Source: an uncultured Actinomycetes bacterium
GTDB taxonomy: Bacteria > Actinomycetota > Thermoleophilia > RBG-16-64-13
Assembly (NCBI GenBank): GCA_963706025.1
Contig: CAVPLM010000005.1
Coordinates: 1,056,001 to 1,120,000, forward strand
DNA: 64,000 bases
Direction: 5' to 3'
The position numbers and the translations under genes were made by a program. Below are positions 24,688 through 52,510 of the stretch, in pieces (the first letter of the stretch is position 1; every line of letters starts with the position of its first letter). The notes under the pieces were generated by a model. It was not told the DNA's origin and did not search any database. It worked only from the letters and a program-made list of their open reading frames with translations.

Positions 24688-25692
24688 TCAACCTCCTGGA
24701 TCCGCCCCGCCATCTTCCGCTCCTCGTTTGATCCTCCGCATCACGACGCTCCGAATGCGGTCGAAAATATCCAGCAGCCCGCCGGGGAAGAGTAGGACGA
24801 CGAGGATGAACAGGACCCCGAAAATGACTTGATGAACGTCGGTCAGGTTAGCCGCCAATCGCTCGCGAACCACCACATAGAAGGCGGCACCGACTACAGG
24901 GCCTGCCAGGGTGCCCACTCCACCGATGTAGGCGATCATCAGGGCTTGGAACGTCCAGGTTGGGAAGAATGGTGCCTCGGGATAGTAGCTGATCTGCTGG
25001 AAAGCGAACACGCCTCCAGCCAGACCCATGAAGAGACTGCTGATCGCGAGAGTCAGCAACTTGTGACGCAGAACGTAAACTCCCGTGGCTTGGGCGGCTT
25101 CTTCATCCTCCCGCACACCCAGAATGCCCAGACTCCACCGGGAACGCATGAGAAGGTAGGCTGCTCCGGTCGTGGCTATCGCCAACGCCAACGCCGCGTA
25201 GTAGCGCAGGGGCAGATTGTAGGAGGCGATCATCTCGCCGGACATCGCCGAAAGGTATGGTTGGTTCTGACCGATGGTGATCCTCATCACCTCTGCCACA
25301 GCCAGTGTGCCGATCGCGAAATAGGCCCCGCGCAGACGGAAGGTCGGTACACCGATCACCATGGCGAAGGCGACCGCGGTCACCCCCCCGACAATGAGTG
25401 CCAGGATGAAGGGGATGCCGCCGAACCATAGCAGGCGCGTGATCAGTGCCCCTATGCCGAAGAAGGCAGCGTGGCCAAGGCTAACCTGCCCGGCGAAACC
25501 CCCCAACATGTTCCAGCTTTGGCCCATGGCGACGCCCATACAAATGAGAAAGAACAGATTCCATACATTGTCCTGGGACATCTGTTGGGGAAAGAGGACC
25601 GCGAAAAGAAGGAGGACGACGATCCCCCCCGGCGCAAGCCAGCGTCGCAGGGAGCGCGGAGAAGACGATTGCGTAGGAGTCATCTTCGCCAT
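24688..25692 (-). CDS. Branched-chain amino acid-type ABC permease (LivM-like)
   Basis: WNMLGGFAGQVSLGHAAFFG, RLRGAYFAIGT, REDEEAA and GGVGTLAGP. Confidence 0.92.
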   Translation of the reverse strand: MAKMTPTQSSSPRSLRRWLAPGGIVVLLLFAVLFPQQMSQDNVWNLFFLICMGVAMGQSWNMLGGFAGQVSLGHAAFFGIGALITRLLWFGGIPFILALIVGGVTAVAFAMVIGVPTFRLRGAYFAIGTLAVAEVMRITIGQNQPYLSAMSGEMIASYNLPLRYYAALALAIATTGAAYLLMRSRWSLGILGVREDEEAAQATGVYVLRHKLLTLAISSLFMGLAGGVFAFQQISYYPEAPFFPTWTFQALMIAYIGGVGTLAGPVVGAAFYVVVRERLAANLTDVHQVIFGVLFILVVLLFPGGLLDIFDRIRSVVMRRIKRGAEDGGADPGG

Positions 25693-26570
25693 CACTTCCT
25701 CACGAACAGGCCCTGTGGACGCACGATCAGCACAACCAGGAAGAGGATCAGGCCGACCACTTCCTTGTAGGTCTGCGCCAGATACGCTCCGCTCAACGCC
25801 TCGACGACGCCCAAAAGGATCCCCGCAGGTAGAGCGCCGAAGACACTGCCGGTGCCGGCCAGGACGATCACGATCATCGCTTTGAGAGTCCAGAACATGC
25901 CGATGCTGGGGGCAAGGGCGTAGGTGAAGGTGACGAACTGCCCTGCGACGCCCGCGAGAGCGGCTCCGAGTGCAAACGTCATCATGTACACACGGCTGAT
26001 GTTGATCCCGGCCAGTTCCGCCGCTTCGTAGTCCTCCGCTGTCGCGCGGATGGCTTTCCCGAAATATGTCTTGCGAAGGAAGAGGGCAAGTGCGACCGTG
26101 ACGACCAGCACCACCGCCAGCGTCGCCAGACGCGTATAGGGAAAGAGGACGCCATAGATGTCAAAACCCTCCCCAGCATAGGAAACCTGCACCGAACGTT
26201 CATCGCCGGTGAAGGCCCATTGCGCCAGGTTCGTCAGGACAAGCCCCAAACCAAAGCTCACGAGCAGGGAGTTCTTGAGCTTCTCCTCTCCTTGGAGGCG
26301 GACGACGTGCCGGTAGATTATCCGGTCGAGGATCAAACCGAGCGCGAACAGAGCGACGATGACTACGGGCAGGGATAGGAAGGGATCGACCCCGAGCGTG
26401 CTGAAGGCCCAGAAACCAACGTAGCCGCCGATCATGACGAGTTCACCGTGGGCGATGTTGAGGATCTTCATCACCCCGAAGACCAAGGCCAGCCCCATCG
26501 CGGCGACGCCATAGATCGAACCCGCAAACACGCCGAAGACGATTGTCTGTATGAAGGATCCAAAGCCCAT
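25692..26570 (-). CDS. ABC permease (LivH-like)
   Basis: GLALVFGVMKILNIAHGE and GKAIRATAEDYEAAELAGIN. Confidence 0.92.
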   Translation of the reverse strand: MGFGSFIQTIVFGVFAGSIYGVAAMGLALVFGVMKILNIAHGELVMIGGYVGFWAFSTLGVDPFLSLPVVIVALFALGLILDRIIYRHVVRLQGEEKLKNSLLVSFGLGLVLTNLAQWAFTGDERSVQVSYAGEGFDIYGVLFPYTRLATLAVVLVVTVALALFLRKTYFGKAIRATAEDYEAAELAGINISRVYMMTFALGAALAGVAGQFVTFTYALAPSIGMFWTLKAMIVIVLAGTGSVFGALPAGILLGVVEALSGAYLAQTYKEVVGLILFLVVLIVRPQGLFVRK

Positions 26571-26573
26571 GGG

Positions 26574-27305
26574 TCAGTCCACCGGGGCTGGGCAGATGCC
26601 CAGATAGGCTTGCTGTACTCGATCGTCATGCAGGAGTTCCTGGCCGGCACCCGTGCCCACGATCCTTCCCTGCTCGAGGATGTAGGCGCGATGGGCAAGC
26701 TCGAGCGCCTGTCGGGCGTTCTGCTCCACCAGGAATATGGTCACACCGTGCTGGTTCATCGTTTGCACGGTTTCGAAGATACTCTCGACGACGAGGGGCC
26801 CCAGCCCGAGCGATGGCTCATCGAGCATGAGGAGCTTCGGCATCCCCATGAGGGCGCGTCCGACGGCGAGCATCTGCTGTTGCCCACCGCTCATCGTGTT
26901 CGCCCGCTGCTCCTTGCGCTCGGCCAACAAAGGAAAGAGCTCGAATACAAGCTTCATTGATTCGAAACGTGCTTCTCTGGCCCGCTTCGAATATGCTCCC
27001 AATTCCAGGTTGTCAAGAACGGTCAGCCCGCCGAAGAGCCGGCGCCCCTCGGGAACCAGGATCACACCCTGTTCCACTATCCTGTGAGCCGGCAGGGTGC
27101 TCAGGGACTTGTCTCGCAATTGCACCGATCCGGATTTGAGCGGTTGAAGACCGGAGATCGCCCGCATCAGAGTCGTCTTGCCCGCGCCGTTCGGGCCGAT
27201 GAGCGCGACGATCTCGCCTTCTTTGACGCTGAGAGACACGTCCCATAGCGCTTGGATGTCTCCGTAGGCAACGTCGATGCCCAGTATCTCGAGGAAATCA
27301 GTCAT
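26574..27305 (-). CDS. ABC ATP-binding protein (LivF-like)
   Basis: Walker A GPNGAGKT, MSGGQQQM and LDEPSLGL. Start at MTDFLEI. Confidence 0.93.
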   Translation of the reverse strand: MTDFLEILGIDVAYGDIQALWDVSLSVKEGEIVALIGPNGAGKTTLMRAISGLQPLKSGSVQLRDKSLSTLPAHRIVEQGVILVPEGRRLFGGLTVLDNLELGAYSKRAREARFESMKLVFELFPLLAERKEQRANTMSGGQQQMLAVGRALMGMPKLLMLDEPSLGLGPLVVESIFETVQTMNQHGVTIFLVEQNARQALELAHRAYILEQGRIVGTGAGQELLHDDRVQQAYLGICPAPVD

Positions 27306-28026
27306 GGAGGGACCTTCCCAGATAGGCATCGATGACCTTCTCGTCGCACGAGACCTCTGCCGGCGTACCTTCGGCGATCAGCTCGCCTGCGCTCAGGACG
27401 ACGATCCGGTCTGCGATCCCAAACACTGCCTTGACCAGATGCTCGACCATGATGATGGTGATGCCCGTGTCGCGAATGCTCTGGATCAGCGCCATCGCGG
27501 TCAAGACTTCGGAGGGGTTCAACCCGGCAAGGAGCTCGTCCAGCAGGAGCAGTTTTGGGTCGGCGGCCAGGGCACGGGCCAGTTCCAGGCGCTTGCGGTC
27601 TACCAGGGTCAGGCTCTTGGCCTTTTCAGATGCACGTTCGGCCAGTCCAACGATCTCGAGGGTCTTGATCGACTCTTTTTCGGCCCGGGACCTACTCCTG
27701 GTCGGGTTGCGCCCGTACACCCTGCCGATGGCCGCGTTGTCCAACACCGACAGCTCTGGGAGAGGTCGCACCAATTGAAACGTGCGCGCGATGCCCATCC
27801 AGCAACGGGCGTGCGACGGAACAGAGGTGATGTCCTTGTCCTCGAACCAGACCTTGCCGTTGGTGGGCGGGTAGACTCCCGTAATGAGGTTGAACAATGT
27901 GGTCTTGCCCGCGCCGTTCGGGCCGATCAAGCCGATGATCTCCCCCTCTGCGACGTGTGTCGAGACGGAGTTGACGGCCACCAACCCTTTGAAAGCTTTG
28001 GAGACATCTTCCAGATTCAGCAGCAA
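27298..28026 (-). CDS. ABC ATP-binding protein (LivG-like)
   Basis: GPNGAGKT, RTFQ, LELARALA, LLDELLAGL and VEH. Probable TTG start at 28026. Confidence 0.92.
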   Translation of the reverse strand: MLLNLEDVSKAFKGLVAVNSVSTHVAEGEIIGLIGPNGAGKTTLFNLITGVYPPTNGKVWFEDKDITSVPSHARCWMGIARTFQLVRPLPELSVLDNAAIGRVYGRNPTRSRSRAEKESIKTLEIVGLAERASEKAKSLTLVDRKRLELARALAADPKLLLLDELLAGLNPSEVLTAMALIQSIRDTGITIIMVEHLVKAVFGIADRIVVLSAGELIAEGTPAEVSCDEKVIDAYLGRSLHD

Positions 28027-28109
28027 ATCTGTTTCCTCGTATGTGTTTTGCCTGAGTTTGTGAGGCCTGGAGGTCACGCTGGACACGTGACCTCCAGGCG
28101 TATGTCAGA

Positions 28110-29438
28110 TTAGCGGTCCGCCCAGGGCAACGCCGGATAGATGATGGGGGCAAGCGCGACGTCGGCAGGGAAGACGAGCGCCTGCTTGCCGCCTTGCCAC
28201 TGGTTGACAGGGTCGAGAGCATTGGGCCAGGTGCCGTCTTCACTGAACGTCACACGGCCGACCAGGGTGTCCAGATCGGTCGCGGCGATCGCGTCGCGGA
28301 TCGCGTCACGATCCAGGCTCGCCGCGCGGGTGATCGCGTCGGCGAGGATCAGAACGCACGAGTAGGCCGGGCCGGTCAGCGCCGCAGCGGGTTTGCCGTA
28401 CACTTCCTTATATTGCGCGGCCATCTCGGCCACGCCCGCGTACGGAAGGCCGTTGTTCCAGCCGGGCAGCAGGAAGACTCCGTCGCTGTCCGTGCCCAGG
28501 TTCTCACCGAACGTGGGCGGATCGGGGGCGCGGATCATGAAGTAGACGCTGGCGTTCCAATCCAACTCCTTGATCTGCTTCATAATCGCCAGTCCGTCCG
28601 GGGAGTTGGGAAGAGCCAGCAGGACTTCGCCGCCGGCGTCTTTGGCGTCTTGGATGAGCGAGGAGTAGTCGGTCGTGCCGGGCGCGTATTCAAGGGTCGT
28701 GACCTCATAGCCACCACGGGTGGTGGCTTCTTTCGTCCACAACTCGACCATTTCCGCGCCCCAGTCCGTGGTCTCCGCGAAGATGACTACCTTCGCGGGT
28801 TTGGGACTAAGGGAATCCAACATCTCGAAGGTGATCCTTGCGTGGTCCTGGGATTTCGGGAAGGGCGAGAAGAGGTACTTGAATCCCTGATCATGCACCC
28901 CCGAGTACAAAGCGAACGCGATACCGAGGTAGGGGATCTGGTTCTTCTCGGCGATGCCGGCCGCCGCTGCGTGCAGGTCGCTTCCCGCGCCGCCCAGGTA
29001 GGCGACGACGTCGTTCGACGCCTGGGTCTCGAGCTGTTGCACGGTTTTGCTCGGGTCCGACTCATCGTCGAGCACGATCAACTCGATCGGGACCTTGGTG
29101 CCGCCCACGTCCAGGCCACCGGCGTCGTTGATGTTCTTGACCGCGAGTTCGTACCCGTTCTTGACCTGTTCGCCCAGACCGGAGTACTTCCCGGTGAGAG
29201 GAATGACGGCGCCGACTTTGATCGTGTCGGGAAGTTCCACCGGCGCTGCGGTGGTCTCGGTACTTGGCGCGGCGGTGGTCTCGGTACTAGGAGCCGCGGT
29301 GGTCTCGGTACCTGGTGCCGCGGTGGTCGTAGTCTCTTCTTCTTCGCCGCAGGCCGCTGCGAACAGGGCTAAGGCGAGCACCACGAGACCTAAGACGAGA
29401 AGTGAGAGTGGAATCCGCTTATAGGATTTCTTTTTCAT
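28110..29438 (-). CDS. Lipoprotein solute-binding protein (LivK/aromatic-acid-binding type)
   Basis: Lipobox FAAAC, Thr/Ala/Pro tether and TIKVGAVIPLTG...LDDESDP Peripla_BP_6 pattern. Confidence 0.9.
   Translation of the reverse strand: MKKKSYKRIPLSLLVLGLVVLALALFAAACGEEEETTTTAAPGTETTAAPSTETTAAPSTETTAAPVELPDTIKVGAVIPLTGKYSGLGEQVKNGYELAVKNINDAGGLDVGGTKVPIELIVLDDESDPSKTVQQLETQASNDVVAYLGGAGSDLHAAAAGIAEKNQIPYLGIAFALYSGVHDQGFKYLFSPFPKSQDHARITFEMLDSLSPKPAKVVIFAETTDWGAEMVELWTKEATTRGGYEVTTLEYAPGTTDYSSLIQDAKDAGGEVLLALPNSPDGLAIMKQIKELDWNASVYFMIRAPDPPTFGENLGTDSDGVFLLPGWNNGLPYAGVAEMAAQYKEVYGKPAAALTGPAYSCVLILADAITRAASLDRDAIRDAIAATDLDTLVGRVTFSEDGTWPNALDPVNQWQGGKQALVFPADVALAPIIYPALPWADR
29248..29328 (-). 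repeat. 24-bp coding tandem repeat ([G/S]TETTAAP linker)
   Basis: GCGGTGGTCTCGGTAC... unit repeated about 3.4 times. Confidence 0.85.
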
Positions 29439-29652: not shown

Positions 29653-30837
29653 CTAGCCGAGCTCGTTCCCGGCGATCAGGACGCTGACCGTCGCGGCACC
29701 CGGCTCTCCACCCTGATTGTGGGTCAGACCGAGGCGCGGGTTCTTGACCTGGCGCTCGCCGGCCTTGCCTTGAAGCTGCTTGTAGACTTCGTACAGCATC
29801 CTCAAGCCCGTCGCACCGATGGGGTGACCGAAACACTTGAGGCCGCCGTCCGTATTCACGGGCAAAGACCCATCCAGGGTGAACGTGCCGGCTTCGATGT
29901 CTTCGCCGGCCTTGCCCCGTTCACTGAATTGCAGGTCTTCCATGATCGTGAGCTCGGTGATGGAAAAGCAGTCATGCACCTCGGCGATGCTGATCTCTTT
30001 GCGCGGGTCCGTGATACCGGCTTCCCTGTAGGCGGCGACACCGCCCCGATAGGTCTCCTCCACGTGGGCCAGATCATAGACCTGGCTCAGCCAGCCCTCA
30101 CGACCACCCTGGCAGATGGTGGCCGCCTTGATATAGATGGGATCCGAGCGGAAGTTTTTGGCGAGGTCGGCTCTGGTGATGATGGCCGCTGCTGCGCCGT
30201 CGCTTACCCCGCAGCAGTCGTAAAGACCCAGGGGATAAGAGACCATGGGGGCGTTGATGGCCTGCTCCAGAGTAATCTCACGTTGAAAGTGAGCCTTAGG
30301 GTTGAGCGAGCCGTTGTGATGGTTCTTGACCGCGATCTGCGCGAGCAGTCTCTTGCCTTCCTCGAAGCTGAGCCCGTATTTCGCAAAGTAGCCTGTGGCC
30401 ATCATCGCGAAACCGGCGGCGGGAGTCTGGGTCGTGAGGCGATAGCTCCAGGTGCATACGGGACGAGTCTGAGGAAGGCCCGAATAACCGGAGTCTTTGA
30501 GCTTCTCAGCCCCCACCGCGAGCACGACGTCGTACACGCCGGCGGCCACGGCATAGGCGGCACCGCGGATGGCTTCTGACCCGGTGGCGCATTGATTCTC
30601 CACGTGTGTCACCGGGATATAAGCGAGCTTCAGCGGCGTGGACATGATCGAGCCCGACTCGCCCGCGAAGACACTCCCCCACCAGGCTGCCTGTATATCA
30701 TGCGGCTCGATGCCGGCGTCCTCGAAGGCTTCGTAGGCCGCGTCGATGATCATATCTTCCAGACTCTGTCCCCAGTTCTCACCGAACTTGACACAGCCCA
30801 TCCCCACGATGGCGACCTTATCTTTGATGCTATCCAC
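29653..30837 (-). CDS. Thiolase (SCP-x/archaeal ACAT type)
   Basis: ENQCATG (catalytic Cys), KNHHNG..NP.A, DCCGVSDGAAA, EVHDCF and GHPIGATG. Confidence 0.92.
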   Translation of the reverse strand: MDSIKDKVAIVGMGCVKFGENWGQSLEDMIIDAAYEAFEDAGIEPHDIQAAWWGSVFAGESGSIMSTPLKLAYIPVTHVENQCATGSEAIRGAAYAVAAGVYDVVLAVGAEKLKDSGYSGLPQTRPVCTWSYRLTTQTPAAGFAMMATGYFAKYGLSFEEGKRLLAQIAVKNHHNGSLNPKAHFQREITLEQAINAPMVSYPLGLYDCCGVSDGAAAAIITRADLAKNFRSDPIYIKAATICQGGREGWLSQVYDLAHVEETYRGGVAAYREAGITDPRKEISIAEVHDCFSITELTIMEDLQFSERGKAGEDIEAGTFTLDGSLPVNTDGGLKCFGHPIGATGLRMLYEVYKQLQGKAGERQVKNPRLGLTHNQGGEPGAATVSVLIAGNELG

Positions 30838-32277: not shown

Positions 32278-33108
32278 TCACTTGCTCAGCACGATCTCGC
32301 CGAGAGACTGGTCTTTCGATGTCTTCGTCTTCACACTCTCGGCCTTGTATCCCGGAGCCGCGACCTTGACCGTGTACTCGGTGTTCTCCGCCAGCCCTTC
32401 GAACTCGAAATCGCCGAAACCGTTGGTCTTGGTGCTCCGGCTCCCGCCGTTGCCGCTCAAGACCACTTCCACGTCCTTGGCTACCTCATCTATATCGCCG
32501 TAGACGACGGTGCCGGCCACGAACTTCTTGGGCAGATGCCGGTAGGTGACCTTCTCTCCCATGACGTATTCGGGGCCCAGGACCTCGGTGGCCCCGGCGG
32601 CCACCAGTCTGGCCACGGCACTGGCGGGGTCGTCCAGATCACCGAAGACGAGCGCGCCTGAGGGGCACGATTCCACGCAGCGGGGCTCAGGCTCGCCCGC
32701 GTCTAGGAGATGGGCGCAGAAGGTGCACTTCTGGGCCAGCTGGAGCTCCTCGTTCCACTCGATTAGGCGATAGGGGCAGGTCTTGACCAGGCCCTTGTTG
32801 CCCTTGGCCTTCTCGGGATCGATGAGGACGATGCCGTCCGCCCGGCGGTAGATGGCCCCGGACTGGTCCAGCTTGACGCAGGCGGCCTCGGCGCAGTGAC
32901 TGCAGGTCACGGGGACGTGGTCCACCTTGACGTGCGGATACTGACCACGCTCGATCTCAAGAACTTTCATCCAGTTCATGCCGCTCATGGGCTGGGCGGC
33001 GGAGTAGCCGGGATACTCATTACCGGCGTATTCGTCGCGGCAGGTGAGGAAGCAGTTGTAGCACCCCACGCACTTGTCGACCTCGATCACCATTCCATAT
33101 CTGGTCAC
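32278..33108 (-). CDS. Fe-S small subunit, pyrogallol transhydroxylase beta-like
   Basis: CVGCYNCFLTC, CSHCAEAAC, CPY and CTFC...CVESCP, plus a C-terminal beta-sandwich (TNGFGDFEFEGL). Confidence 0.88.
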   Translation of the reverse strand: MTRYGMVIEVDKCVGCYNCFLTCRDEYAGNEYPGYSAAQPMSGMNWMKVLEIERGQYPHVKVDHVPVTCSHCAEAACVKLDQSGAIYRRADGIVLIDPEKAKGNKGLVKTCPYRLIEWNEELQLAQKCTFCAHLLDAGEPEPRCVESCPSGALVFGDLDDPASAVARLVAAGATEVLGPEYVMGEKVTYRHLPKKFVAGTVVYGDIDEVAKDVEVVLSGNGGSRSTKTNGFGDFEFEGLAENTEYTVKVAAPGYKAESVKTKTSKDQSLGEIVLSK

Positions 33109-42273: not shown

Positions 42274-42332
42274 CGTATCAGAGTTCGTATACGAAGTTAT
42301 ATCACGGTACTTTACGGCACCCTCGAAGTCAA
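42274..42332 (-). promoter_or_regulatory. Sigma-A promoter plus operator copy 1
   Basis: Minus strand: TTGACT(42332-42327)-N17-TACCGT(42309-42304), 7 nt, then CTTCGTATACGAACTCTGATACG (42296-42274), just upstream of the amidohydrolase gene. Confidence 0.8.
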
Positions 42333-42432: not shown

Positions 42433-43746
42433 TCATTGGTACATCAGGTTCGGCAGCCACGTGGACAGCCAGGGCAAGAACACGAGCAGCACCAGGAAGA
42501 TCAGCATCGTCCATACGAACGGCCAACATCCTCTGAAGATCGTGTACATGGGCACCTCTTTGTGCATCCCGGCCAGGGAGAACACCACGACCCCTACCGG
42601 AGGCGTGATGCAGCCCACCATGATGCAGAGGATGGCGACGACCCCCAGTTGGAGCGGGTCGAAGCCCATGTCCGTGAGGATGGGGAAGAAGATGGGCAGG
42701 GTGATAATCATCACCGACCAGATGTCCATCAGCATCCCCAGGATGAAGTACAGGAAGATCACGAGGAGCAGCACCAGATACCTGCTGAGTTCGGCCTCCA
42801 CCAGCGCGTTGGAGATGGCCGGAGCGATCTCGCTGGTGGTGAGGAAGTGGCTGAAGTACTGGGCGCCGAAGATGAGCAGCAGGATCATGGCCGAGATCTG
42901 GGCGGCCTCGAGCAGGGCGTGGCCGATCATCTTGAGCGAGAACCGCTTGTAGAAGATGCTCACGATGATGACCGCCAGCGTGCCGGCGGCGCCGGCTTCG
43001 GTTGGGGTGAACAGACCCGACAGAAGACCGCCCATGACGAAGATGAACACGATCAGGATGCCGATGATCCCTTTGAGCGACTTGAGCCGCTCCGTCCAAG
43101 TGGCCTTCGGCTGGACCGAGGACAGATTGGGATTGATCCTACATTGCAGTGCGATCTGGATCATGAACATGAGGGTCAGGACGATGCCCGGCAAGATACC
43201 GGCGATGAACAAGGCGGCGATGGATGTCTGGGTGATGAAGCCGAACACGACGAAAGCCGTGCTCGGGGGGATGAGGATCCCCAGGTTGCCGCCCGCTGCG
43301 ATGGAACCGAAGGAGAGCCGGTCGTCGTAGCCGTACTTACGCATCTCGGGCAGGGCCGCCTTGTCCATGGTGGCTGCCGTGGCGATGTTGTCACCGCAGA
43401 CCGCGCCAAAAGCCGCGCAGGTGCCGACGGTGGCCATGGCTAAGCCGCCGCGCAGGTGGCCCACCCAGCGGTTGAAGGTCTTGAAGGCGCTCTCGGTCAC
43501 CCCGCCCTTCCCGGCGACAATGCCCATGAGGACGAAGAGTGGGATCACCACCAGGTACTGGGAGTTGCCCACGCGCCACACCGTGGTGGCCAGGGTGTTG
43601 AGGGCCGGTTCCAGACCCCGGGAGAGCCAGATGCCGACGAACCCCGCGACCATGAGCGACAGCCCCACGTGCATTCGCAGGAACATGAGTATGAAGAAGA
43701 GGCCGGCGCCGATGAGCCCTAGGGCCCACAGGGGAAGCTCGCTCAT
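42433..43746 (-). CDS. dctM: TRAP transporter large permease
   Basis: IPLFVLMG, GGLAMA, GNLGILIPPS, FTPTEAG and ITPPVG. Confidence 0.93.
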   Translation of the reverse strand: MSELPLWALGLIGAGLFFILMFLRMHVGLSLMVAGFVGIWLSRGLEPALNTLATTVWRVGNSQYLVVIPLFVLMGIVAGKGGVTESAFKTFNRWVGHLRGGLAMATVGTCAAFGAVCGDNIATAATMDKAALPEMRKYGYDDRLSFGSIAAGGNLGILIPPSTAFVVFGFITQTSIAALFIAGILPGIVLTLMFMIQIALQCRINPNLSSVQPKATWTERLKSLKGIIGILIVFIFVMGGLLSGLFTPTEAGAAGTLAVIIVSIFYKRFSLKMIGHALLEAAQISAMILLLIFGAQYFSHFLTTSEIAPAISNALVEAELSRYLVLLLVIFLYFILGMLMDIWSVMIITLPIFFPILTDMGFDPLQLGVVAILCIMVGCITPPVGVVVFSLAGMHKEVPMYTIFRGCWPFVWTMLIFLVLLVFLPWLSTWLPNLMYQ

Positions 43747-44297
43747 TTCTTCACCGCCTCAGCCAGGGACCGAAGGAAGCGCATCACAAAGATGGGGATC
43801 ATGGTGAAGATCCCGAAGGCGGCCAGATACGTGAACGGGTAGATCTCGATGGGGACGTTGCGTGTCCGCTGGTTGGCCTCCTGGTAGGTCATGGCCAGCT
43901 TCACCAGTTGCCAGCACAGGATGCAGAAGATGGCTATGCCCAGGAGATAGATGATCGGCTGGACGATCAGTTGCACCCGCTTCGGCAGGTGCTTGGCCAC
44001 GATGTCGACCGTCATCTTCTCGTGCCGCCCCATGTGCTCGTAACCGATAACCAAGAAGGTGATGACCACCAGCCCCAACTGGGTGATCTCGGTCGACCCC
44101 TTGAGAGGCGCATTGAAGAAGCGGCGCCCGATGATCGACCAGATCATCGCCAGGACCATCGCTCCCAGGGCCGCGGCTCCGATGTACGCAAGCCACTTGT
44201 AGATAGGCTTGATGAAGGCCTCGACGGAGTCCGCGGCCTTGGCAAGGCCGGTGGTCGGCACTGCGGCCGCGCCCTCGGGTTGCCCGTGTTCACTCAT
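43743..44297 (-). CDS. dctQ: TRAP transporter small permease
   Basis: 4 TM segments, GRRFFNAPLKGSTEI and MTVDIV. Lies between dctP and dctM. Confidence 0.88.
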   Translation of the reverse strand: MSEHGQPEGAAAVPTTGLAKAADSVEAFIKPIYKWLAYIGAAALGAMVLAMIWSIIGRRFFNAPLKGSTEITQLGLVVITFLVIGYEHMGRHEKMTVDIVAKHLPKRVQLIVQPIIYLLGIAIFCILCWQLVKLAMTYQEANQRTRNVPIEIYPFTYLAAFGIFTMIPIFVMRFLRSLAEAVKK

Positions 44298-44316
44298 GCG
44301 TGTCCTCCAACTGGGT

Positions 44317-44351
44317 CGATCGGCCCCGGCCGGGATGGCCGGGGCCGATCG
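44317..44351 (-). terminator. Intercistronic hairpin between dctP and dctQ
   Basis: 15-bp perfect stem CGATCGGCCCCGGCC/GGCCGGGGCCGATCG with a 5-nt loop. Confidence 0.65.
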
Positions 44352-44364
44352 TCATCGCGTTGGC

Positions 44365-45816
44365 TTACGGGATCATGTACTCGTAGGTAGCGCCACCGTG
44401 CGCAACATCGGTGGCGACGATCTTCGCGAGGCCGGCGACTCCGGAGTAGTCGAGCACGCCCTCCGCCGCCTCGGGGATATCAAGCGGGCCGAGGCTCTTG
44501 CCGCTTGCGTCGAAGCCCTCGACCTTGGCACCGAACGGACCTTCTGTGGAGACCGCGAACTGCTGCCCCGGCTCAGGCACGATTGTGAGCTTGACCTTGC
44601 TGTTGCCCAGGTCTTCGAAGAAGATCCCGGTGGTTCCGGCCGGTGCGGTGGTGGTGGTCACCTCGGTCGGGGCCATGGCGCCGTACTTTTCGACGAGTTG
44701 GACGGCCTGATCAAGCACCGCCTGAGCCTCGCCACCGGTCTCCTGCACCCACGTGCCCCACACCGGCTCGGCAGCGGCCTTCCACAACGCCAGCTCTTCC
44801 GCGGTGGGCACATAGATAGGAGGATTGCCCGCACCCTTGTCGGACCCTTCGATAGCGGCCTTGTCCTCCGCCGCCAACGCCTCGTTCGCCGCGTTGTAAG
44901 CCGAGAAGGCGTCGGGATTGCTGACGCTCACGATCTGGTCCTGAAGCACCTTGGGCATGGAATCCCAGACATCCTTGTTCAGGATCAGGGCGAAGGCGCG
45001 GTAGAACATGTCGGTCTCAGTACGGTACTGGGTGACGTCTTTGATCCCGGTGATCAGGGCGAAGGAGTAGCTGAGGAAGCAGGAGTCGGCCATGCCTCTT
45101 TCCATGGAGGTCGCCAGTTCACCTGTGCTGATCTCCACCGGAGTCGCGCCAAGAGCCTCGATGAGCCAGGCCTCGATCTGTCCGCCCGACCGCACCCTCT
45201 GGCCGGTCATGTCGGCGGGGACTTTGGCCTCTTTGCTACCGAAATACTGGGCCGGAGCGATGACTGGGCAGCCCACCAGCACTACATCCTTCCATTCCTC
45301 GGCAGCGGGAGAGTCGGTGAGGATATCCCAGTAGACCCGGCCCGTCACTTCGGCGCTGGGGAACATCTGCGGCAGGCCGTAGAATTCCGACAGCGGGAAG
45401 CGGCCCGGAGTGGCGTCGGCCGTCAGCGAGGCGATGTCGGCAAGACCGGAGGTGACGGCGTCGTACTGGTCGGCCTCTTTCACCAAGGTCTCTTCGGCAT
45501 ACAGTTCGATGGTCACGCGATTGTTGGTCGCCGCCGCGACCGCGTCAATCCACGGCTTGTAGTAGGCCCCGACGATGCTGGCCCTGTCCGGGACGTGGAT
45601 GGACATCTTCAGTTCGTAGGTCTGCCCGGTGTCGGGCACTCCGGCCACCGTGGTGGTGGTCTCGGGTGCCGCGGTGGTCTCGGTGCTCGGAGCCGCAGTG
45701 GTCACCGGCGCGGCGGTGGTGGTGGTCTCTTCTTCGCCGCAGGCCGCCATCAGCGTAGCGAGACCCAGCGCCAATACCAGGGCCAGCAGGCCGACGGCCC
45801 ATTTTCTTTTCTTCAT
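44365..45816 (-). CDS. dctP: TRAP lipoprotein solute-binding protein with extra C-terminal domain
   Basis: Lipobox MAAC, Thr-rich tether, DAVTSGLADI, TPGRFPL, GQRVRSGG and MERGMAD. Start at MKKRKW (45816). Confidence 0.88.
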   Translation of the reverse strand: MKKRKWAVGLLALVLALGLATLMAACGEEETTTTAAPVTTAAPSTETTAAPETTTTVAGVPDTGQTYELKMSIHVPDRASIVGAYYKPWIDAVAAATNNRVTIELYAEETLVKEADQYDAVTSGLADIASLTADATPGRFPLSEFYGLPQMFPSAEVTGRVYWDILTDSPAAEEWKDVVLVGCPVIAPAQYFGSKEAKVPADMTGQRVRSGGQIEAWLIEALGATPVEISTGELATSMERGMADSCFLSYSFALITGIKDVTQYRTETDMFYRAFALILNKDVWDSMPKVLQDQIVSVSNPDAFSAYNAANEALAAEDKAAIEGSDKGAGNPPIYVPTAEELALWKAAAEPVWGTWVQETGGEAQAVLDQAVQLVEKYGAMAPTEVTTTTAPAGTTGIFFEDLGNSKVKLTIVPEPGQQFAVSTEGPFGAKVEGFDASGKSLGPLDIPEAAEGVLDYSGVAGLAKIVATDVAHGGATYEYMIP

Positions 45817-45960
45817 CTCACTCCCCCTCTGCAATATCCGATAGCTCGTCTTCATGCAACTGTCTTTTGGGACCCGACAAAGCCGTGTGCCTGTGTTTCC
45901 ACCCCCTCCATTCTCGACCCATCGCCCACCGAGTTCTGTTTCGAACCAAGTGAGCGGCTG

Positions 45961-45986
45961 CTTCGTATCGGAGTTCGTATACGAAG
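45961..45986 (-). promoter_or_regulatory. Operator copy 2 (upstream of dctP)
   Basis: CTTCGTATCGGAGTTCGTATACGAAG, nearly identical to the copies at 42274 and 52449. Confidence 0.8.
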
Positions 45987-46136
45987 CGCTCTCACGACCA
46001 CCTGTGTTTACACCGGTACCGATCCGTTGTCCATCACTTTAGTTGGTAAACTTTGGTCGAGGCTAAGGTTGAGTGGAGCAGGGGGTCCCTTTCTGAGGAT
46101 GGTAGACGTGTCTCTTGCCGAGGCATCGTGACGGCC

Positions 46137-47279
46137 ATGTTCGGTGCGGTGCCCGTCAGACTATGGTCTATGACCACTCGGGTCGCGAGGAACCCACACT
46201 TCTGGGTGGTGGTCGTTCTCTCCGCCATACTTCTATTCATATACCAGGCTTGGCCTTGGCCCGAGTCACGGTTCAACAGCGGAGTGTGGCGTTCTTTCTC
46301 CTGGTTGTCCGCGCTCGAATCCCTCGTCATAGAGGTGGAGCTCAAGTACCATCTGTTCGGCGCGTTGTTCTTGATACCGATCCTATATGGTTCGCTGACC
46401 CTGTCGTGGACCGGAGGCATCTTCGCCTGGTGTTTGGCGCTGATCTGGGTGTTGCCGACCGTTCTTTCGTGGTCGAGCGCCCCGCTGCTGCTCAACCTCA
46501 CCCTCCTCCTCTTGCCCGTGTTGCTCGTAGCCATCATCAGCGGGGAACGACGATGGCGCGAGAACAAAAGACGCTACTTCGCCGAGCGCGAACGAGAGCG
46601 ACAGGCGTACATCGCCAAGCTGGTCGAGACCGAAGAGATAGAACGTAGACGTATCGCCCAGGAACTCCACGACGAGACCCTCCAGACTCTTATGGTCATC
46701 GCGAACAAAGCGGATTCCCTCGCCCTGTCGGGAACCGATGAGAGGCAGGTCAGAGGCAATCTATGGATCAAGCAGGAAGTGCTTCAGACGATGGACGACC
46801 TGAGGCGACTGAGCATGAACCTGCGACCGAGCGTGTTGGACAACTTTGGCCTCGTCTCCGGGGTCAGATGGCTGATCAACAACAGCAACAGCCAGAACGG
46901 TTGCCATCTGGACGTCGCCGTGATCGGCGAGGAGCGGAAGATGTCGAGCCTCTCCGAAGTCACCGCGTTCCGGGTCGTCCAGGAGGCGATCAACAACATA
47001 CAGCGGCACGCGTACGCGAAGAGCGGTACCGTCAGTCTGGAGTTCGGAGACGACCGCCTGCTACTGCAGGTCAAGGACGACGGCGTGGGCTTTCGGCCAC
47101 CCGATAGACTTGCGGTTTACGTGGTCGAGAGCAAGCTGGGCATGATGGGGATGGAGCAGAGGGTACTTTCGGTCGGAGGTGAGATCAGCGTCGACTCCAG
47201 CCCCGGGGAAGGCACAAGAATCTGGGCCTCAGTCCCCTACACGGCCTCAGCCCAGGTCTTCCAGGGTGAGAATGCCTGA
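46137..47279 (+). CDS. Membrane sensor histidine kinase (HisKA_3, NarX/DegS type); start uncertain
   Basis: N-terminal TM segments, ERRRIAQELHDE (phospho-His), QEAINNI, DDGVGF, GMMGM and GEGT. Confidence 0.92.
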   Translation: MFGAVPVRLWSMTTRVARNPHFWVVVVLSAILLFIYQAWPWPESRFNSGVWRSFSWLSALESLVIEVELKYHLFGALFLIPILYGSLTLSWTGGIFAWCLALIWVLPTVLSWSSAPLLLNLTLLLLPVLLVAIISGERRWRENKRRYFAERERERQAYIAKLVETEEIERRRIAQELHDETLQTLMVIANKADSLALSGTDERQVRGNLWIKQEVLQTMDDLRRLSMNLRPSVLDNFGLVSGVRWLINNSNSQNGCHLDVAVIGEERKMSSLSEVTAFRVVQEAINNIQRHAYAKSGTVSLEFGDDRLLLQVKDDGVGFRPPDRLAVYVVESKLGMMGMEQRVLSVGGEISVDSSPGEGTRIWASVPYTASAQVFQGENA

Positions 47280-47927
47280 CTTGAGACTGACGAAGATGGC
47301 CTCCGTCCGCGAGCGCACGTTCAGCTTCTGAAACACATCTACGAAGTAGCTTTTGACCGTGGCTTCACTGATCCCCAGATTGGCCCCTATCTCCTTGTTG
47401 GAGAGGCCCCTGGCCGCCAGAGTGAGAACCTCCATGCCCTTCGCCGAGAGCTTCTCCTGATCGACCTGCTTGATCGGCCTGACGACGTGCTGCAGCGCGT
47501 ACTTGAGGACCTCTTGGGACACCTCTGGGGACAGCACCATGTCGCCGTCCATGACGGCCCGAATGGTGTGGATCACCTCGGGACCGAAGATCGACTTGAC
47601 GAGGTACCCGCTGGCCCCGGCCTGCAGGATGCTGAAGATCGTCTCGACGTCGGTATGGACGGTGAGGATCAGCACCGCGGTGAGAGGGTCGGCTGCTTTG
47701 ATCCGCTTGGTGGCCTCGACTCCGTTCATGGTGGGCATGCTGATGTCCATGATGACGATGTCCGGGCGATGCTCCCCGGTCATGGTCACGGCCTCCTGGC
47801 CGTCACCGGCCTCACCGATGACGCGAAGATCCGGCTCCTTTTCCAGGATGTCGCGCAGAGCGCGGCGGACGAGGGGATGATCGTCCACCAGGAGGATCCG
47901 GGTCTCTTGCTGTTCAGCCGATTCCAC
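47247..47927 (-). CDS. NarL/LuxR-family response regulator
   Basis: LVDDHPLVR, DIVIMDISMP, GYLVK and LuxR HTH GLSNKEIG..ISEATVK. Confidence 0.94.
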   Translation of the reverse strand: MESAEQQETRILLVDDHPLVRRALRDILEKEPDLRVIGEAGDGQEAVTMTGEHRPDIVIMDISMPTMNGVEATKRIKAADPLTAVLILTVHTDVETIFSILQAGASGYLVKSIFGPEVIHTIRAVMDGDMVLSPEVSQEVLKYALQHVVRPIKQVDQEKLSAKGMEVLTLAARGLSNKEIGANLGISEATVKSYFVDVFQKLNVRSRTEAIFVSLKSGILTLEDLG

Positions 47928-48001: not shown

Positions 48002-48118
48002 TGGTCTCTAATCATATAGTAGGAAGTGGATGCAGGTGAAAAACGGGGAGCGGCTCCGCGCGGGGCGCCTGTTCTCGGCGAGCGCATGAGGCAGACCCCA
48101 CGCGGGATACGACGTGAT

Positions 48119-48142
48119 AAGATATATCTTGATATATCTAGA
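48119..48142. promoter_or_regulatory. AT-rich palindromic operator-like site
   Basis: AAGATATATCTT palindrome followed immediately by a second GATATATC, about 30 nt upstream of the His-rich ORF. Confidence 0.6.
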
Positions 48143-48172
48143 CACAGCGTATCCGACTGCTGGAGGACCGAC

Positions 48173-48475: not shown

Positions 48476-48524
48476 ATCAGGACGACACCGGTCGAGCCCA
48501 CAAGCCGGGCGTGACTCGCCCCCG

Positions 48525-49340
48525 TCACCCCACCAGTTCGGGCGACAGTTTCAGCCGCTCCACCACCTCGTCGACGGTCGCCGGCTCGAGGTTCATCGAC
48601 CTCGCCACGCCCACGAGTTGCTCGACGAGCTGAGCGTTGGAGGTGGCCAGCTCCTTCGGCCTGACGTAGAGCGTGTCCTCGAGACCGGTGCGCGCGTTGC
48701 CGCCCATGGCCAGACCGATGGTGGTCAGCGGCAGGTTGGCCTTCGAGATGGCGATCACCTGCCAGCTGGTGTTCGGGGGCAACTCGCGGACGAGATAGGA
48801 GAGCAGCATGGGATCGGCCGGCATGCCGCCCTTGACACCCATGACGAACGAGACCTGCAGCGGTTCGGTGAGGAGGTCCCTCTTGAGGAGGTCCAGCATC
48901 AGGCCAAGGTGCCCGGTGTCGTAGATCTCGACCTCCGCCTTCACGCCCAGCTCGCGCATGCGCGCAGCCAGCTGAAGCATCTGCTTCGGCGGGTTCCGGA
49001 ACTCGATCTCGCCGATGGTCATGGTGGCGGGATTCAAGCTGGCCATGGCCGGCTTTGCCTCCACGATCTTCATGCGGTCCTCGTAGGGGAACCCGCCGCC
49101 AGTGGAGAGCTGCACGATACCTGGACACTTCTCGCGCACCAAATCCACCGTGCGCCGCGCCACGTCCAGGTCGGTGGTGAAATCGTCGTTGTCCCGCAGA
49201 TGGATGTGGATAACGGCGGCGCCGGCCTCGTAGGCTCCCTTGGCGCTTTCGGCGATCTCCTCCGGGGAGCCCGGCATCGCGGGGCTGTCCTTCTTGGTGG
49301 CGGCGGGGCCGGTGAGCGAGGCGGTGATGATCGGGTTCAT
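48525..49340 (-). CDS. Beta-keto acid cleavage enzyme (BKACE/DUF849; Kce-like)
   Basis: IITASLTG, EEIAE..AYEAGAAVIHIHLR (HxH), STGG, EIYD.GH and RTGLED. Confidence 0.92.
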   Translation of the reverse strand: MNPIITASLTGPAATKKDSPAMPGSPEEIAESAKGAYEAGAAVIHIHLRDNDDFTTDLDVARRTVDLVREKCPGIVQLSTGGGFPYEDRMKIVEAKPAMASLNPATMTIGEIEFRNPPKQMLQLAARMRELGVKAEVEIYDTGHLGLMLDLLKRDLLTEPLQVSFVMGVKGGMPADPMLLSYLVRELPPNTSWQVIAISKANLPLTTIGLAMGGNARTGLEDTLYVRPKELATSNAQLVEQLVGVARSMNLEPATVDEVVERLKLSPELVG

Positions 49341-49510: not shown

Positions 49511-50268
49511 TCAGACCGCGGACAGTCCACCGTCGACGTAGATGATCTGCCCGGTCATGAAGTCCGATTCGTCCGACGCCAGCAGGATGATGGGACCGAA
49601 TAGGTCCTCCGGCGCGCCCAGGCGGGACAGCGGGATCTCCGCCGTCATCTTGGAGTAGATCTCCGGCTTGGAGAGGAATTCACGGGTCATGTCGGTGATG
49701 ACGAGCGCCGGCGCGATGGCGTTCACGTTGATGTTGTACTTGGCCCACTCCGCCGCCAAGGTCCGGGTCAGCTGGTCCACGCCGCCCTTGCTCGTGGCGT
49801 AGGCTGAACCACCGATCGAGGGGGCGACCCGTCCTCTCACCGAGGACATGTTGATGATCTTGCCGCGCTTCTGCTCGATCATGACTCTGCCCACAGCCTG
49901 GCACGCCAGGAACATACCGACGATATTGAACTTGACGACCCTCTCGAACTCCTCCGGAGGCATCTCCTCCGCCGAGAAGCGTGCGTTGGTACCGGCGATG
50001 TTGACGAAGGATGTCGATCTTGCCGAACTCCTTCATCGACCTGGTCGACCATGTCCTTCATCGCAGAGGCGCTGGTGACGTCGGCCGAGACGGCCAAGGC
50101 CTTGCGTCCCGTCCCTTCGATGTCCTTGACCACCGCCTCCAGGTGCCCCGGGTCGAAGTCGGCGGCGACCATGTCCGCGCCGCACTGTGCCAGACGGACG
50201 GAGATCGGTCGCCCCAATCCGCCGCCAGCCCCCGTTACGACCGCAACCTTGCCTGTCAGATCGAACAT
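49511..50268 (-). CDS. Short-chain dehydrogenase/reductase (candidate phloroglucinol reductase); two +1 frameshifts near 50037 and 50008
   Basis: MFDLTGKVAVVTGAGGGLG, FGKIDIL, VNIAG, NMSS, YATSK and VNAIAP are spread over three frames. AAGGAGG RBS. Confidence 0.85.
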
Positions 50269-50333
50269 CGGACCTCCTTGAGTTTCTGGAAAAACGACGG
50301 GCATCTTGTCGCCCTGCCTCAGTCGCGGCTCAC

Positions 50334-51285
50334 TCAGTCGCGGCTCATGAACAGCTTGAGTTGCGGCAGCAGCCGGCGATTCTTCTCTTCGAGGACTTCC
50401 GCGCGCGTCTTGCCGCTGTAGTCGTACCAGCCCTTGCCCGACTTGATCCCCAACTCGCCTTTGTTGACCTTCTCCACCAGGATCGGCGACGGTTCGGTCG
50501 CGTTGCTCAGGCCCTTGAACACCCGGCCCGATACCACCATGGCGATGTCGAGACCGATCATGTCCTCCACCTCCATGGGGCCCAGGCAGGCGAACCTGAA
50601 ACCGGTGCTGCTCTTGATGGCGATGTCCAGGTCCTCGGGGGTCACGATCCCTTCGTCGAGCAGGTAGTCGATCTCCCGCTCGATCGCGCCCATGATGCGG
50701 TTCACGATGAAGCCCGGCACCTCTTTGCGCACGAGCACGGTCTTCTTGCCCGAGGCCTCCATGAGGCGCTTGGTCTCCTCGAAAGCGGCATCAGAGGTCT
50801 CGCTGCCCCGGTGGATCTCGACCAAGGGGATGATGTGCCCGGGATTGAAGTAGTGGATGCCGATGATGTTATCGGGATTCGGCATCCCCTCGGCCAGCGA
50901 ATCGACCGTCAGGCTGCCGGTGTTGCTCCCGATGATCACATCCGGGTTGGCCGCCTGGATGAGCGCCCAAGAGAGCCCTCTTGTCGTCGAGGATCTCGCG
51001 GATCGTCTCCACCACGTAGCTGCATCCCTCGACCGCTTGGACCATGTCGGTGGTGACCATGCCCTCGATGCGGTCCATCACTTGGTCGACCGTCTCCTCG
51101 ATCAGGTCGAATTCGATGAACTGCTGGATGTTGTGGCGAAGCTGCTCGAGAGCCCGGGTCAGCGGCTCTTCACGGCGCGCCACGAGCCGTACGTCGAACC
51201 CGTTCTGTGCGAAGGTCTGAGCGATGCCTTCGCCCATCGTCCCCGTGCCCACGATCAGTATCTTCTGCGCGTTTCCTGTACTCAT
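50334..51285 (-). CDS. 3-hydroxyacyl(-CoA) dehydrogenase family protein; +1 frameshift near 50965
   Basis: IVGTGTMGEGIA and VVETIRE in one frame, then SNTGS, IHYFNP, PGFIVNR and GKGWYDY in the next. Confidence 0.88.
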
Positions 51286-51304
51286 GCTTGACCTCCGGTC
51301 GCGC

Positions 51305-52160
51305 CTACTTCTTGTGCTGGGGCCGATCCCCCAGGAAGTCGGCAGCGATCTTGTCGAAATTGTGCCGAGTGGCCTGCAGCGCAACGGCGTACATCTCGGC
51401 CAGAACGTGGACGCGTTCATCGTCCTGCAGGGCGCGTTTCCACGGGCGCATCACGAGCTCATGGGTTAGGCGGCGGACGGCCCGGCCCTGACTTCATGAT
51501 GTGGTTGGCGATCTCGTAGGCGCGCGGGATGAGCTGGTCGTGCTCGACGATCTCGTTGATGAGACCCCAGTCCAGGGCGGTCTTGGCGTCGATCTTGGGC
51601 TCCATGTAGGCCATGTAGGCCGCCCGCTTCTGCCCGACACACACGCGGTAGGAGAAGTTCATGCCATCGCCGGGAACGATGTTGTGCGAGAAATGGGCAT
51701 CCGAGAAGTAGAAGTCGGGGACGCAGATGGCGATGTCCGCCATCAGGGCGAATTCGTAGTGCTGTCCGATCCCGTTGATGGCGGCGATGACGGGGACTTC
51801 GATGTCGTTGATGAAGTTCTCGACGAAGTTCATCGTGTCTGGAACGTTGCAGTTGTACTTGAGAGCAAGGTCGGTGGAGTCCTCGACTTCATCGAACGAG
51901 GCGGGGTCGCTCCTCTGGGTAATCCAGTAGGGGTCCGCGCAGGTCAGGATGATGATCTCGTTCTGCTTGTCGTGTCCGATGGCGGTCCACAGTTCGCCGT
52001 AAGCATTCTGGGTCTGGTAGCTCCAAACACAGGCCTCGCCTCTCCAGTGAAGACGACAGAGAAGAATGCCGTCCTCCGTGCGCTCCAGGTGGGCGAAATC
52101 CTTGAACCGTTCGCTGTATTCCTCTAACGTTTCCACGTGTACATAAGGCTGCATTGCCAC
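51305..52160 (-). CDS. Crotonase-superfamily beta-diketone hydrolase (6-oxocamphor hydrolase-like); +1 frameshift near 51485
   Basis: EEYSERF..LERTEDGILL..H..G..VW, IEVPVIAAINGIGQH and DAHFSHNIVPGDG. The corrected C-terminus ...RAVRRLTHELVMRPWKRALQDDERVHVLAEMY...KK ends at TAG 51305. Confidence 0.8.
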
Positions 52161-52185
52161 GGTTGCTTCCTCCTCCTCTGGGTCT

Positions 52186-52425
52186 CTACATCTCGGCTAT
52201 CTTGTCGTCTTTGTATTCGATGTAATCGAAGTCATGCGCTGATTTGCTCAGGTTGAACGAGTACATCTCCGAGATCACCTGGGTGCGAAGGTACTTCTCG
52301 ACGTACTCACGCCAGGGTTTCACGCAAAGATGATGGGTCATGCGCCGGCAGGAGCGGGTCTTCTGCATGATGTTGCGAGCCAGTTCCCAGGACCTGTCCA
52401 TGATCTTGTCTCTCTCCACGATAAC
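52186..52425 (-). pseudogene. 3' remnant of a second crotonase paralog
   Basis: IVERDKIMDRSWELARNIMQK..RRMTHHLCVKPW..ISEMY..HDFD aligns with the C-terminal part of the adjacent crotonase. The catalytic N-terminal part is absent. Confidence 0.75.
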
Positions 52426-52448
52426 GGGTACGATGGATGATCCATTAA

Positions 52449-52510
52449 CTTCGTATCGGAGTTCGTGTACGAAGCCCAGCCAAGCTACCGCCTGGCGAGA
52501 CGAAAGTCAA
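52449..52510 (-). promoter_or_regulatory. Sigma-A promoter plus operator copy 3
   Basis: Minus strand: TTGACT(52510-52505)-N17-TAGCTT(52487-52482), 7 nt, then CTTCGTACACGAACTCCGATACGAAG (52474-52449). Confidence 0.8.

Follow-up and report, generated by a model that had tools for sequence, protein, structure and literature searches.

We describe a 28-kb gene island (positions 24688–52510) in a 64,000-nucleotide stretch of DNA from an uncultured sediment actinomycete (G000:C5:1056001–1120000; 'the window' is this whole stretch at its full length). We conclude with moderate confidence that the island is a MarR-controlled anaerobic regulon for the uptake and degradation of a polyhydroxylated aromatic compound, built like the reductive phloroglucinol pathway yet distinct from it. 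This reading is carried by direct observations: the enzyme families that the island encodes, an operator that occurs nowhere else in the genome, the conservation of the gene network across phyla, and the coexistence of the island with a canonical phloroglucinol cluster. The genome is 3.66 Mb in 30 contigs (64% G+C; 92.3% complete, 7.3% contaminated; the contigs named here are C1, C3, C5, C8, C14, C17, C19 and C29). The loci nearest to the island are found in metagenome-assembled genomes (MAGs) labelled Actinomycetota, Actinomycetes and Thermoleophilia, and the host is probably a member of the Thermoleophilia within the Actinomycetota.

Pfam matches place the gene content described in the original prediction, which was made from the sequence letters, at 24688–52510 (Table 1). 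All of its enzyme-class calls are upheld, including two molybdenum (Mo) subunits of the transhydroxylase family and a beta-diketone hydrolase, and so is its call of a protein with the NicX fold (Foldseek). The listed enzymes and importers are on the minus strand; the histidine kinase, which the original prediction did not mention, is encoded on the plus strand.

The same genome contains a second, canonical gene cluster. In the accessible part of Zhou et al. (2023; PMC10470551), the phloroglucinol pathway of Clostridium scatologenes consists of PGR (a short-chain dehydrogenase/reductase, SDR), DPGC (cyclase family), TfD and TAL (BKACE family). In our genome, C17:20979–28874 encodes BKACE, SDR, a 3-hydroxyacyl(-CoA) dehydrogenase-family enzyme (3HCDH) and a cyclase in this order, followed by an AthL/BthL pair with Arg153; four more AthL-like genes lie beyond. 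The window proteins share 44% (SDR), 39% (3HCDH) and 37% (BKACE) identity with the C17 copies, and none of the genome's six matches to the PF04199 cyclase family is located in the window. In each of five other genomes that contain the crotonase module and were searched whole (5/5), a BKACE gene is found within 3 kb of a cyclase gene elsewhere; thus, the crotonase module comes in addition to the cyclase system and does not stand in for it where a cyclase is missing. Taken together, the canonical C17 cluster, the low identity and the cyclase-adjacent BKACE genes of these five genomes argue that the island is a parallel pathway and not the phloroglucinol route with extras. We had considered the crotonase as a genome-wide substitute for a missing cyclase and dropped this candidate because genomes with the module also hold BKACE beside a cyclase. 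Extended to 42299, the C17 region contains the canonical cluster and then five AthL-like and three BthL-like genes; a third module (C3:634928–642587; LivHMGFK-3HCDH-BKACE-SDR) adjoins neither a cyclase nor a crotonase.

The island is tied together by a 23-nt operator, CGTATCnGAGTTCGTRTACGAAG, that holds the 12-bp palindrome TTCGTATACGAA. Exactly three copies are present in the 3.66-Mb genome, all three within the island and each upstream of a transcription unit, so the three-unit link proposed originally stands. Related loci totalling 1.32 Mb contain six exact matches to the operator core, of which five fall inside the relatives' versions of the island; two of these five (in L034 and L036) are directly upstream of the MarR gene. 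The simplest reading of this arrangement is that the MarR protein would regulate its own gene and control the three island units. An Rfam scan of the window gave no match, and promoter and terminator scans of the window gave matches at chance level only.

The island's module network recurs in Actinomycetota, Chloroflexota, Acidobacteriota, Bacillota, Desulfobacterota and Proteobacteria; the co-occurrence of these genes in other genomes, on which the original prediction depended, is confirmed by the loci that follow. In L035, the order is Mo1-Mo2-FeS-HMGS/DUF35-thiolase-ECH-B-ECH-A-3HCDH-SDR-BKACE, with 68–96% identity to the island proteins. The Mo genes with lysine at position 153 (Lys153), the Fe-S subunit, the HMGS/DUF35 fusion and the thiolase are retained in L056 (Dehalococcoidaceae), L025 (Acidobacteriaceae), L043 and L049; the Lys153 Mo genes form a tandem pair in L043, L056 and L025. 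This Mo-Mo-FeS-fusion-thiolase block is kept in Actinomycetota, one Dehalococcoidaceae MAG and one Acidobacteriaceae MAG. In two Lachnospiraceae-like loci (L029 and L030), ECH-A (82% and 70%) is accompanied by BKACE, 3HCDH and SDR.

The best PDB matches of the crotonase-fold protein are 6-oxocamphor hydrolase (OCH; E 2.7e-29) and the Anabaena beta-diketone hydrolase (ABDH), with ordinary enoyl-CoA hydratases scoring far lower; the catalytic His122, His145 and Asp154 are conserved, as in enzymes of the OCH/ABDH type. (PDB entry 1szo has Ala at 122, consistent with an H122A mutant.) Among 1.84 billion representatives, 34 match the crotonase at E ≤ 1e-30; in a sample of the phylum, relatives are present in 8 of 301 genomes at E ≤ 1e-20, its own genome included. 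We kept 80 of 173 confirmed loci, 5 of which contain a cyclase. A quick tree of the crotonases separates a 44-row clade (SH-aLRT 98), that is, type A (18 rows), type B (24 rows) and two long-branched rows, from a sister clade of 42 rows. At least one partner gene (SDR, 3HCDH, BKACE, Mo, thiolase or the 384-aa protein described below) is located within the locus in 36 of the 44 rows of the former vs 5 of the 42 rows of the latter. Near relatives encode a type-B and then a type-A crotonase; the window retains only the last 77 codons of type B, and contigs from two other metagenome runs (X2 and X3) cover this remnant and agree with the window.

The two Mo subunits clearly belong to the AthL family: they match the large subunit of Pelobacter acidigallici transhydroxylase (AthL; PDB 4v4c) over their full lengths (Mo2, E 5e-240; Mo1, E 2e-233), with scores of 801.9 and 779.8 bits to 4v4c_A; the next match, dimethyl sulfoxide reductase, scores ∼271 bits. 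Mo2 retains Ser175, which we take to be the Mo ligand, as well as His144, Asp174, Tyr404 and Tyr560, which, with Arg153, we take to be pocket residues. Arg153 is replaced by Lys in Mo1, in Mo2 and in all eight orthologs of at least 60% identity. The genome contains 23 full-length AthL-like open reading frames (ORFs), some perhaps redundant, in three residue classes: the C17 gene beside the canonical cluster has Arg153 as in AthL (class 1); Lys153 marks Mo1, Mo2 and every ortholog at ≥60% identity (class 2); and the remaining class is without Tyr404 and Tyr560 (class 3). This AthL-like expansion, with several split ORFs in addition to the full-length ones, extends over C3, C5, C14, C17, C19, C1, C8 and C29, often with BthL-like genes and Liv-type ABC importers paired to it; the near-equal copies on C1, C8 and C29 may reflect redundant contigs.

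The reductive module also departs from its canonical counterpart. The NADPH motif of PGRs is TR(S/N) in the accessible part of PMC10470551; after strand 2, the window SDR reads VAADFD and the L035 SDR reads VVVDDL, whereas three window-type orthologs (L043, L049 and L057; 79–90% identical over the C-terminal half) read TSR. The C-terminal half of the SDR matches generic SDRs in the PDB, with no phloroglucinol reductase among the matches listed, and in NCBIfam none of the proteins of the SDR, 3HCDH, crotonase, cyclase and BKACE types matched a model specific to it. The window BKACE protein is a full-length match to PF05853 and is below the cut-off of every NCBIfam BKACE model; with the Kce model, it scores 249.8 bits vs 328.2 bits for the C17 copy.

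The thiolase retains the nucleophilic Cys83 and the GHPIGATG motif; it exceeds the cut-off of an NCBIfam acetyl-CoA acetyltransferase model (NF004810; 553.8 bits), and in the PDB it matches 6esq_A (E 8.9e-61) and PhlC (E 1.6e-31). Scored against the archaeal thiolase/HMGCS/DUF35 complex vs PhlA, PhlB and PhlC, the parts of the trio give 112.6 vs 91.1, 53.7 vs 24.3 and 209.4 vs 113.1 bits, respectively. In the HMGS-like domain, Cys114 is replaced by Leu, Glu82 by Thr and the His of FHQPN by Asn (6esq numbering). The accessible part of PMC6392133 identifies Cys114 and Glu82 as catalytic in HMGCS and describes PhlA as being without the catalytic Cys and Glu. Because the catalytic Cys, Glu and His are all replaced, the HMGS-like domain cannot be an HMG-CoA synthase.

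Decarboxylases and amidohydrolases without a name make up the top 10 PDB matches of the Amidohydro_2 enzyme (E 2e-19 to 8e-17), with LigW, gamma-resorcylate decarboxylase and ACMSD the nearest. The decarboxylases of this family are known to act on ortho-hydroxy acids, and gallate is not one. The 384-aa protein has 303 homologs; the 120 that were listed are all named 'hypothetical protein' at source, and some homologs carry PF26233. The protein has many invariant His residues, and its predicted structure (pLDDT 92.8) retrieves NicX with Foldseek (7cn3; E 1e-18, TM ∼0.6) and then M29 aminopeptidases. The entry of one homolog (P0202) is 515 aa long and includes a lactonase domain; the two neighboring genes may truly be fused there, or a frame error may have merged them.

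Searches for COX1/heme-copper oxidase, cytochrome bd and CdhC gave no match in the 92%-complete genome. Directly upstream of the island are genes for a tungsten-type aldehyde:ferredoxin oxidoreductase, an ADP-forming acetyl-CoA synthetase and an acetyl-CoA hydrolase/transferase. These negative results together with the flanking genes are consistent with an anaerobic, acetate-forming lifestyle; the lack of a terminal oxidase match also makes an O2-dependent reaction of the NicX-fold protein unlikely. UbiD-family genes are present in the genome, none of them within the window.

Using the enzyme families, we infer the following order of steps. The substrate would be imported by the TRAP transporter (if carboxylated) or the Liv-type ABC transporter; the Amidohydro_2 enzyme would then remove a carboxyl group ortho to a hydroxyl, and the two Lys153 AthL-like subunits, with one common Fe-S subunit, would reposition or add a hydroxyl. 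The SDR, predicted to be NADH-dependent, would reduce the meta-hydroxylated ring, and the oxocamphor-hydrolase-like crotonase would open the resulting cyclic beta-diketone by a retro-Claisen reaction. The 3-hydroxyacyl dehydrogenase would next carry out an oxidation, and the BKACE enzyme would use acetyl-CoA to cleave the beta-keto acid; the last step, a thiolysis, would fall to the thiolase in a PhlACB-shaped complex with the HMGS-like/DUF35 fusion as an inactive scaffold. The CoA-transferase and the ADP-forming acetyl-CoA synthetase encoded beside the island would convert the products to acetate with formation of ATP. The lactonase and the NicX-fold protein would deal with an extra hydroxyl or a lactone. 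In place of phloroglucinol itself, the candidate substrates are resorcylates or resorcinol, with hydroxyhydroquinone as intermediate, or compounds of the 1,2,3,5-tetrahydroxybenzene type. A more specific proposal, which we offer tentatively and consider rather improbable as a whole, is that the crotonase module and the Lys153 AthL pair constitute a reductive pathway for hydroxyhydroquinone/tetrahydroxybenzene-type rings fed from resorcylates/resorcinol, and that the type A/B crotonases are a new, widespread family of ring-opening hydrolases. To our knowledge, a pathway of this kind is known only from work with cell extracts, and genes have not been assigned to it.

The original prediction explained the island differently, as itself the gallate/pyrogallol to phloroglucinol to acetyl-CoA pathway, with the crotonase simply in place of the cyclase-family dihydrophloroglucinol hydrolase. 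Every enzyme class of the route in the accessible part of PMC10470551 except the cyclase is indeed present, the crotonase is of the beta-diketone hydrolase type, 75 of the 80 crotonase loci are without a cyclase, Mo2 keeps the five AthL residues named above, and the accessible part of a 2026 preprint describes SAR116 genomes with PGR but no cyclase gene. However, a canonical cluster coexists in all six genomes examined, and in ours it is the better candidate for the textbook route; the island proteins are distant from their canonical paralogs, both Mo subunits and their eight orthologs have exchanged Arg153, the SDR has Asp where PGRs have their NADPH motif, and the decarboxylase family would not be expected to accept gallate. 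We therefore regard this explanation as possible but doubtful. The lineage novelty suggested for such genes was not borne out, AthL-like genes having been reported in sediment Chloroflexi (in the accessible parts of PMC3971608 and PMC4959651). In our coverage of the literature, that is, outside subscription journals and supplements, no paper ties a crotonase-fold hydrolase or an AthL-thiolase operon to a phloroglucinol-type pathway, and none describes the present module. In another alternative, the Mo-Mo-FeS-HMGS/DUF35-thiolase block acts on acylated phloroglucinols/resorcinols, and the trio is a PhlACB-like CoA-independent C-acyl transferase that strips or moves ring acyl groups before reduction, not a beta-ketothiolase. 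The PhlACB architecture, the PhlA-like lack of Cys114 and Glu82 and the invariable linkage of the block to AthL-like genes in L035, L043, L049, L056 and L025 favor this alternative; the higher scores of all three parts against the archaeal complex and the match to the acetyltransferase model do not, and we judge it distinctly unlikely.

Several observations weigh against the regulon and pathway that we propose. Which crotonase opens the ring is uncertain, given that the relatives have a pair of paralogs and the window a single one. Loci of the Alteromonas type combine the type-B enzyme with cyclases and have no BKACE; in them, this crotonase may cleave the linear triketide instead. The N-terminus of the Amidohydro_2 enzyme has Asn-x-His where its relatives have His-x-His or Glu-x-His, which we take to be the metal-ligand motif. 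The enzyme may be a hydrolase rather than a decarboxylase; the accessible part of PMC11780191 places a ring-cleaving (ring-A) beta-diketone hydrolase in the Amidohydro_2 family. NCBIfam matches of the SDR, 3HCDH and BKACE proteins are generic or under the cut-off, and the paralog counts are upper bounds because some contigs appear redundant and the genome is 7.3% contaminated. Finally, four genes of the island contain five frame breaks that were absent from the original prediction, and one of these, in Mo1, behaves differently from the others.

The breaks are located in Mo1 (near 38010), the SDR (50005–50008 and 50037–50039), 3HCDH (50960) and the crotonase (near 51488). They could represent real pseudogenization, that is, a decaying ring-cleavage module in an island that is only partly functional in this strain: four of the five are within 1.5 kb, and the type-B crotonase next to them is genuinely truncated, the X2 and X3 contigs matching the window there. 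However, every break is a 1-nt insertion. Orthologous DNA of L035 (79–90% identical) shows one extra window base at ∼51488, 50960, 50037 and 50008. We compared the window with contigs of public metagenome runs from four studies (freshwater and sediment), which cover 38010, 50005, 50039 and 50960; one window base is missing from the run contigs in 4/4 runs at both 50005 and 50039 and in 3/4 at 50960, and at 38010 a base is lacking in one of the three runs that have depth there. The deletion at 38010 is found neither in X2 (0 of 12 depth) nor in X3 (0 of 6.7 depth), which favors decay at this site; given these two runs, some members of the population may truly carry a broken Mo1. Many paralogs on other parts of the genome are also fragmented into multiple in-frame segments, and so are genes of the related MAG L035, as would be seen in a noisy assembly. 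Other runs have contigs without four of the breaks, and the L035 ortholog has none of the four that were compared with it; we therefore read the breaks as most likely errors of assembly and consider a decaying module very unlikely.

Table 1. Features of the island, by position in the window (., no strand assigned).
Feature	Position	Strand	Basis
Liv-type ABC importer (LivM, LivH, LivF, LivG and the binding protein LivK with Thr-rich linker)	24688..29438	-	Pfam
SCP-x/archaeal-type thiolase, PhlC-like position in trio	29653..30837	-	Pfam, NCBIfam, PDB
HMGS-like + DUF35 fusion, PhlA+PhlB-like scaffold, no HMGS catalytic residues	30841..32268	-	Pfam, PDB
BthL-like Fe-S subunit, single gene serving two Mo subunits	32278..33108	-	Pfam Fer4_11 + CarboxypepD_reg
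AthL-like Mo subunit Mo2 (843 aa), Lys153 subclass	33113..35644	-	PDB match 4v4c
AthL-like Mo subunit Mo1, Lys153 subclass, N-terminal domain in another frame	35649..38170 (upper limit approximate)	-	PDB match 4v4c
7-bladed beta-propeller lactonase	38292..39485	-	Pfam PF10282, E 3.6e-65
NicX/M29-fold His-rich metalloprotein, 384 aa, no Pfam match	39516..40670	-	Predicted structure, Foldseek
MarR-family regulator, likely operator-binding protein	40699..41211	-	Pfam
Amidohydro_2 enzyme, ACMSD/LigW/gamma-resorcylate decarboxylase branch	41213..42253	-	Pfam, PDB
Operator copy 1, 21–43 nt upstream of Amidohydro_2 start	42274..42296	.	Motif scan
TRAP transporter DctM, DctQ, DctP	42433..45855	-	Pfam
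Operator copy 2, upstream of dctP	45964..45986	.	Motif scan
HisKA_3 histidine kinase, convergent with response regulator	46053..47279	+	Pfam; same arrangement in L034
NarL/LuxR-type response regulator	47247..47927	-	Pfam
BKACE-family enzyme, intact	48525..49340	-	Pfam
SDR, NAD-type Asp after strand 2, two 1-nt insertions	49511..50304	-	Pfam
3HCDH, 3-hydroxyacyl(-CoA) dehydrogenase-family enzyme, 1-nt insertion at 50960	50334..51285	-	Pfam
Crotonase-fold beta-diketone hydrolase, type A, 1-nt insertion near 51488	51305..52160	-	Pfam, PDB
C-terminal remnant of type-B crotonase paralog	52186..52419	-	Sequence comparison
Operator copy 3, upstream of crotonase module	52452..52474	.	Motif scan

Several features of the DNA in and around the island are recorded as side observations. 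The island is flanked by copies, in inverted orientation, of a short palindromic repeat with the core GGAAGAGTCGCACAGGC (24385–24531 and 52745–52770); this repeat has 10 matches in the genome at up to two mismatches and may be a REP-like element or a terminator. Tandem repeats of 24 nt (29227–29352 and 45626–45727) encode Thr-rich linkers at the N-termini of LivK and DctP, the latter being unusually long (496 aa). Between the response regulator and BKACE is a gap of ∼600 nt (47928–48524) without a Pfam-matching ORF that is diverged or replaced in the contigs of other metagenome runs; the spacer between 3HCDH and SDR (50305–50333) contains a 15-nt repeat, of which run X8 has 30 extra letters. 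Outside the island, an ORF of 1154 aa (12065–15529) has dihydroxy-acid dehydratase domains confined to its C-terminal half (residues 628–1145); its long N-terminal part, without a Pfam match, may be a high-G+C artefact or a frame error.

Anaerobic polyphenol turnover controls carbon storage in sediments and peat, and the only phloroglucinol route that annotation tools recognize is the cyclase type. Another conserved module, one that uses a different ring-opening enzyme and has its own Mo subclass, would mean that polyhydroxybenzene degradation is under-counted, and it would yield candidate genes to test for substrates that are degraded anaerobically by pathways still lacking assigned genes; if the tentative proposal for the type A/B crotonases is true, this family coexists with the phloroglucinol pathway in many anaerobes and in marine and soil bacteria. 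The operator and MarR pair offers a simple handle on the inducer.

Several parts of the island have counterparts among characterized systems. The crotonase keeps the triad of its closest PDB relatives, 6-oxocamphor hydrolase (1o8u) and the Anabaena beta-diketone hydrolase (2j5g/2j5s), which are CoA-independent crotonase-fold retro-Claisen hydrolases of cyclic beta-diketones; it differs from them in its low identity (E ∼1e-29) and its context of SDR, 3HCDH and BKACE, which is not described for those enzymes. The 384-aa protein shares its fold and His-rich conserved center with the 2,5-dihydroxypyridine dioxygenase NicX (7cn3) and the M29 aminopeptidases, but the identity is 13%. The island's thiolase, HMGS-like and DUF35 parts reproduce the architecture of PhlACB (5m3k), a CoA-independent acyltransferase whose thiolase-like subunit has Cys88, and of the archaeal complex (6esq), and the HMGS-like part, like PhlA in the accessible part of PMC6392133, is without the catalytic Cys and Glu; unlike in both complexes, the HMGS-like and DUF35 parts are one fused protein and the genes are linked to AthL-like genes, and the sequences are nearer to the archaeal set than to PhlACB. 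The Mo enzymes match AthL/BthL of P. acidigallici over the full length, the Fe-S partner having a C-terminal Ig-like domain, but the island has two tandem large subunits for one small subunit, Lys in place of Arg153 in both large subunits and their orthologs, and one operon shared with the thiolase trio. As in the C. scatologenes cluster (in the accessible part of PMC10470551), SDR, 3HCDH-family and BKACE enzymes are encoded in one unit with thiolase and CoA-transferase nearby, and the logic (reduce, open by retro-Claisen reaction, oxidize, cleave) is the same; unlike that cluster, the island has a crotonase-fold enzyme where the cyclase-family hydrolase stands and an SDR with an NAD-type Asp instead of TR(S/N), and it coexists with a canonical cluster to whose copies in the same genome its own proteins are 37–44% identical.

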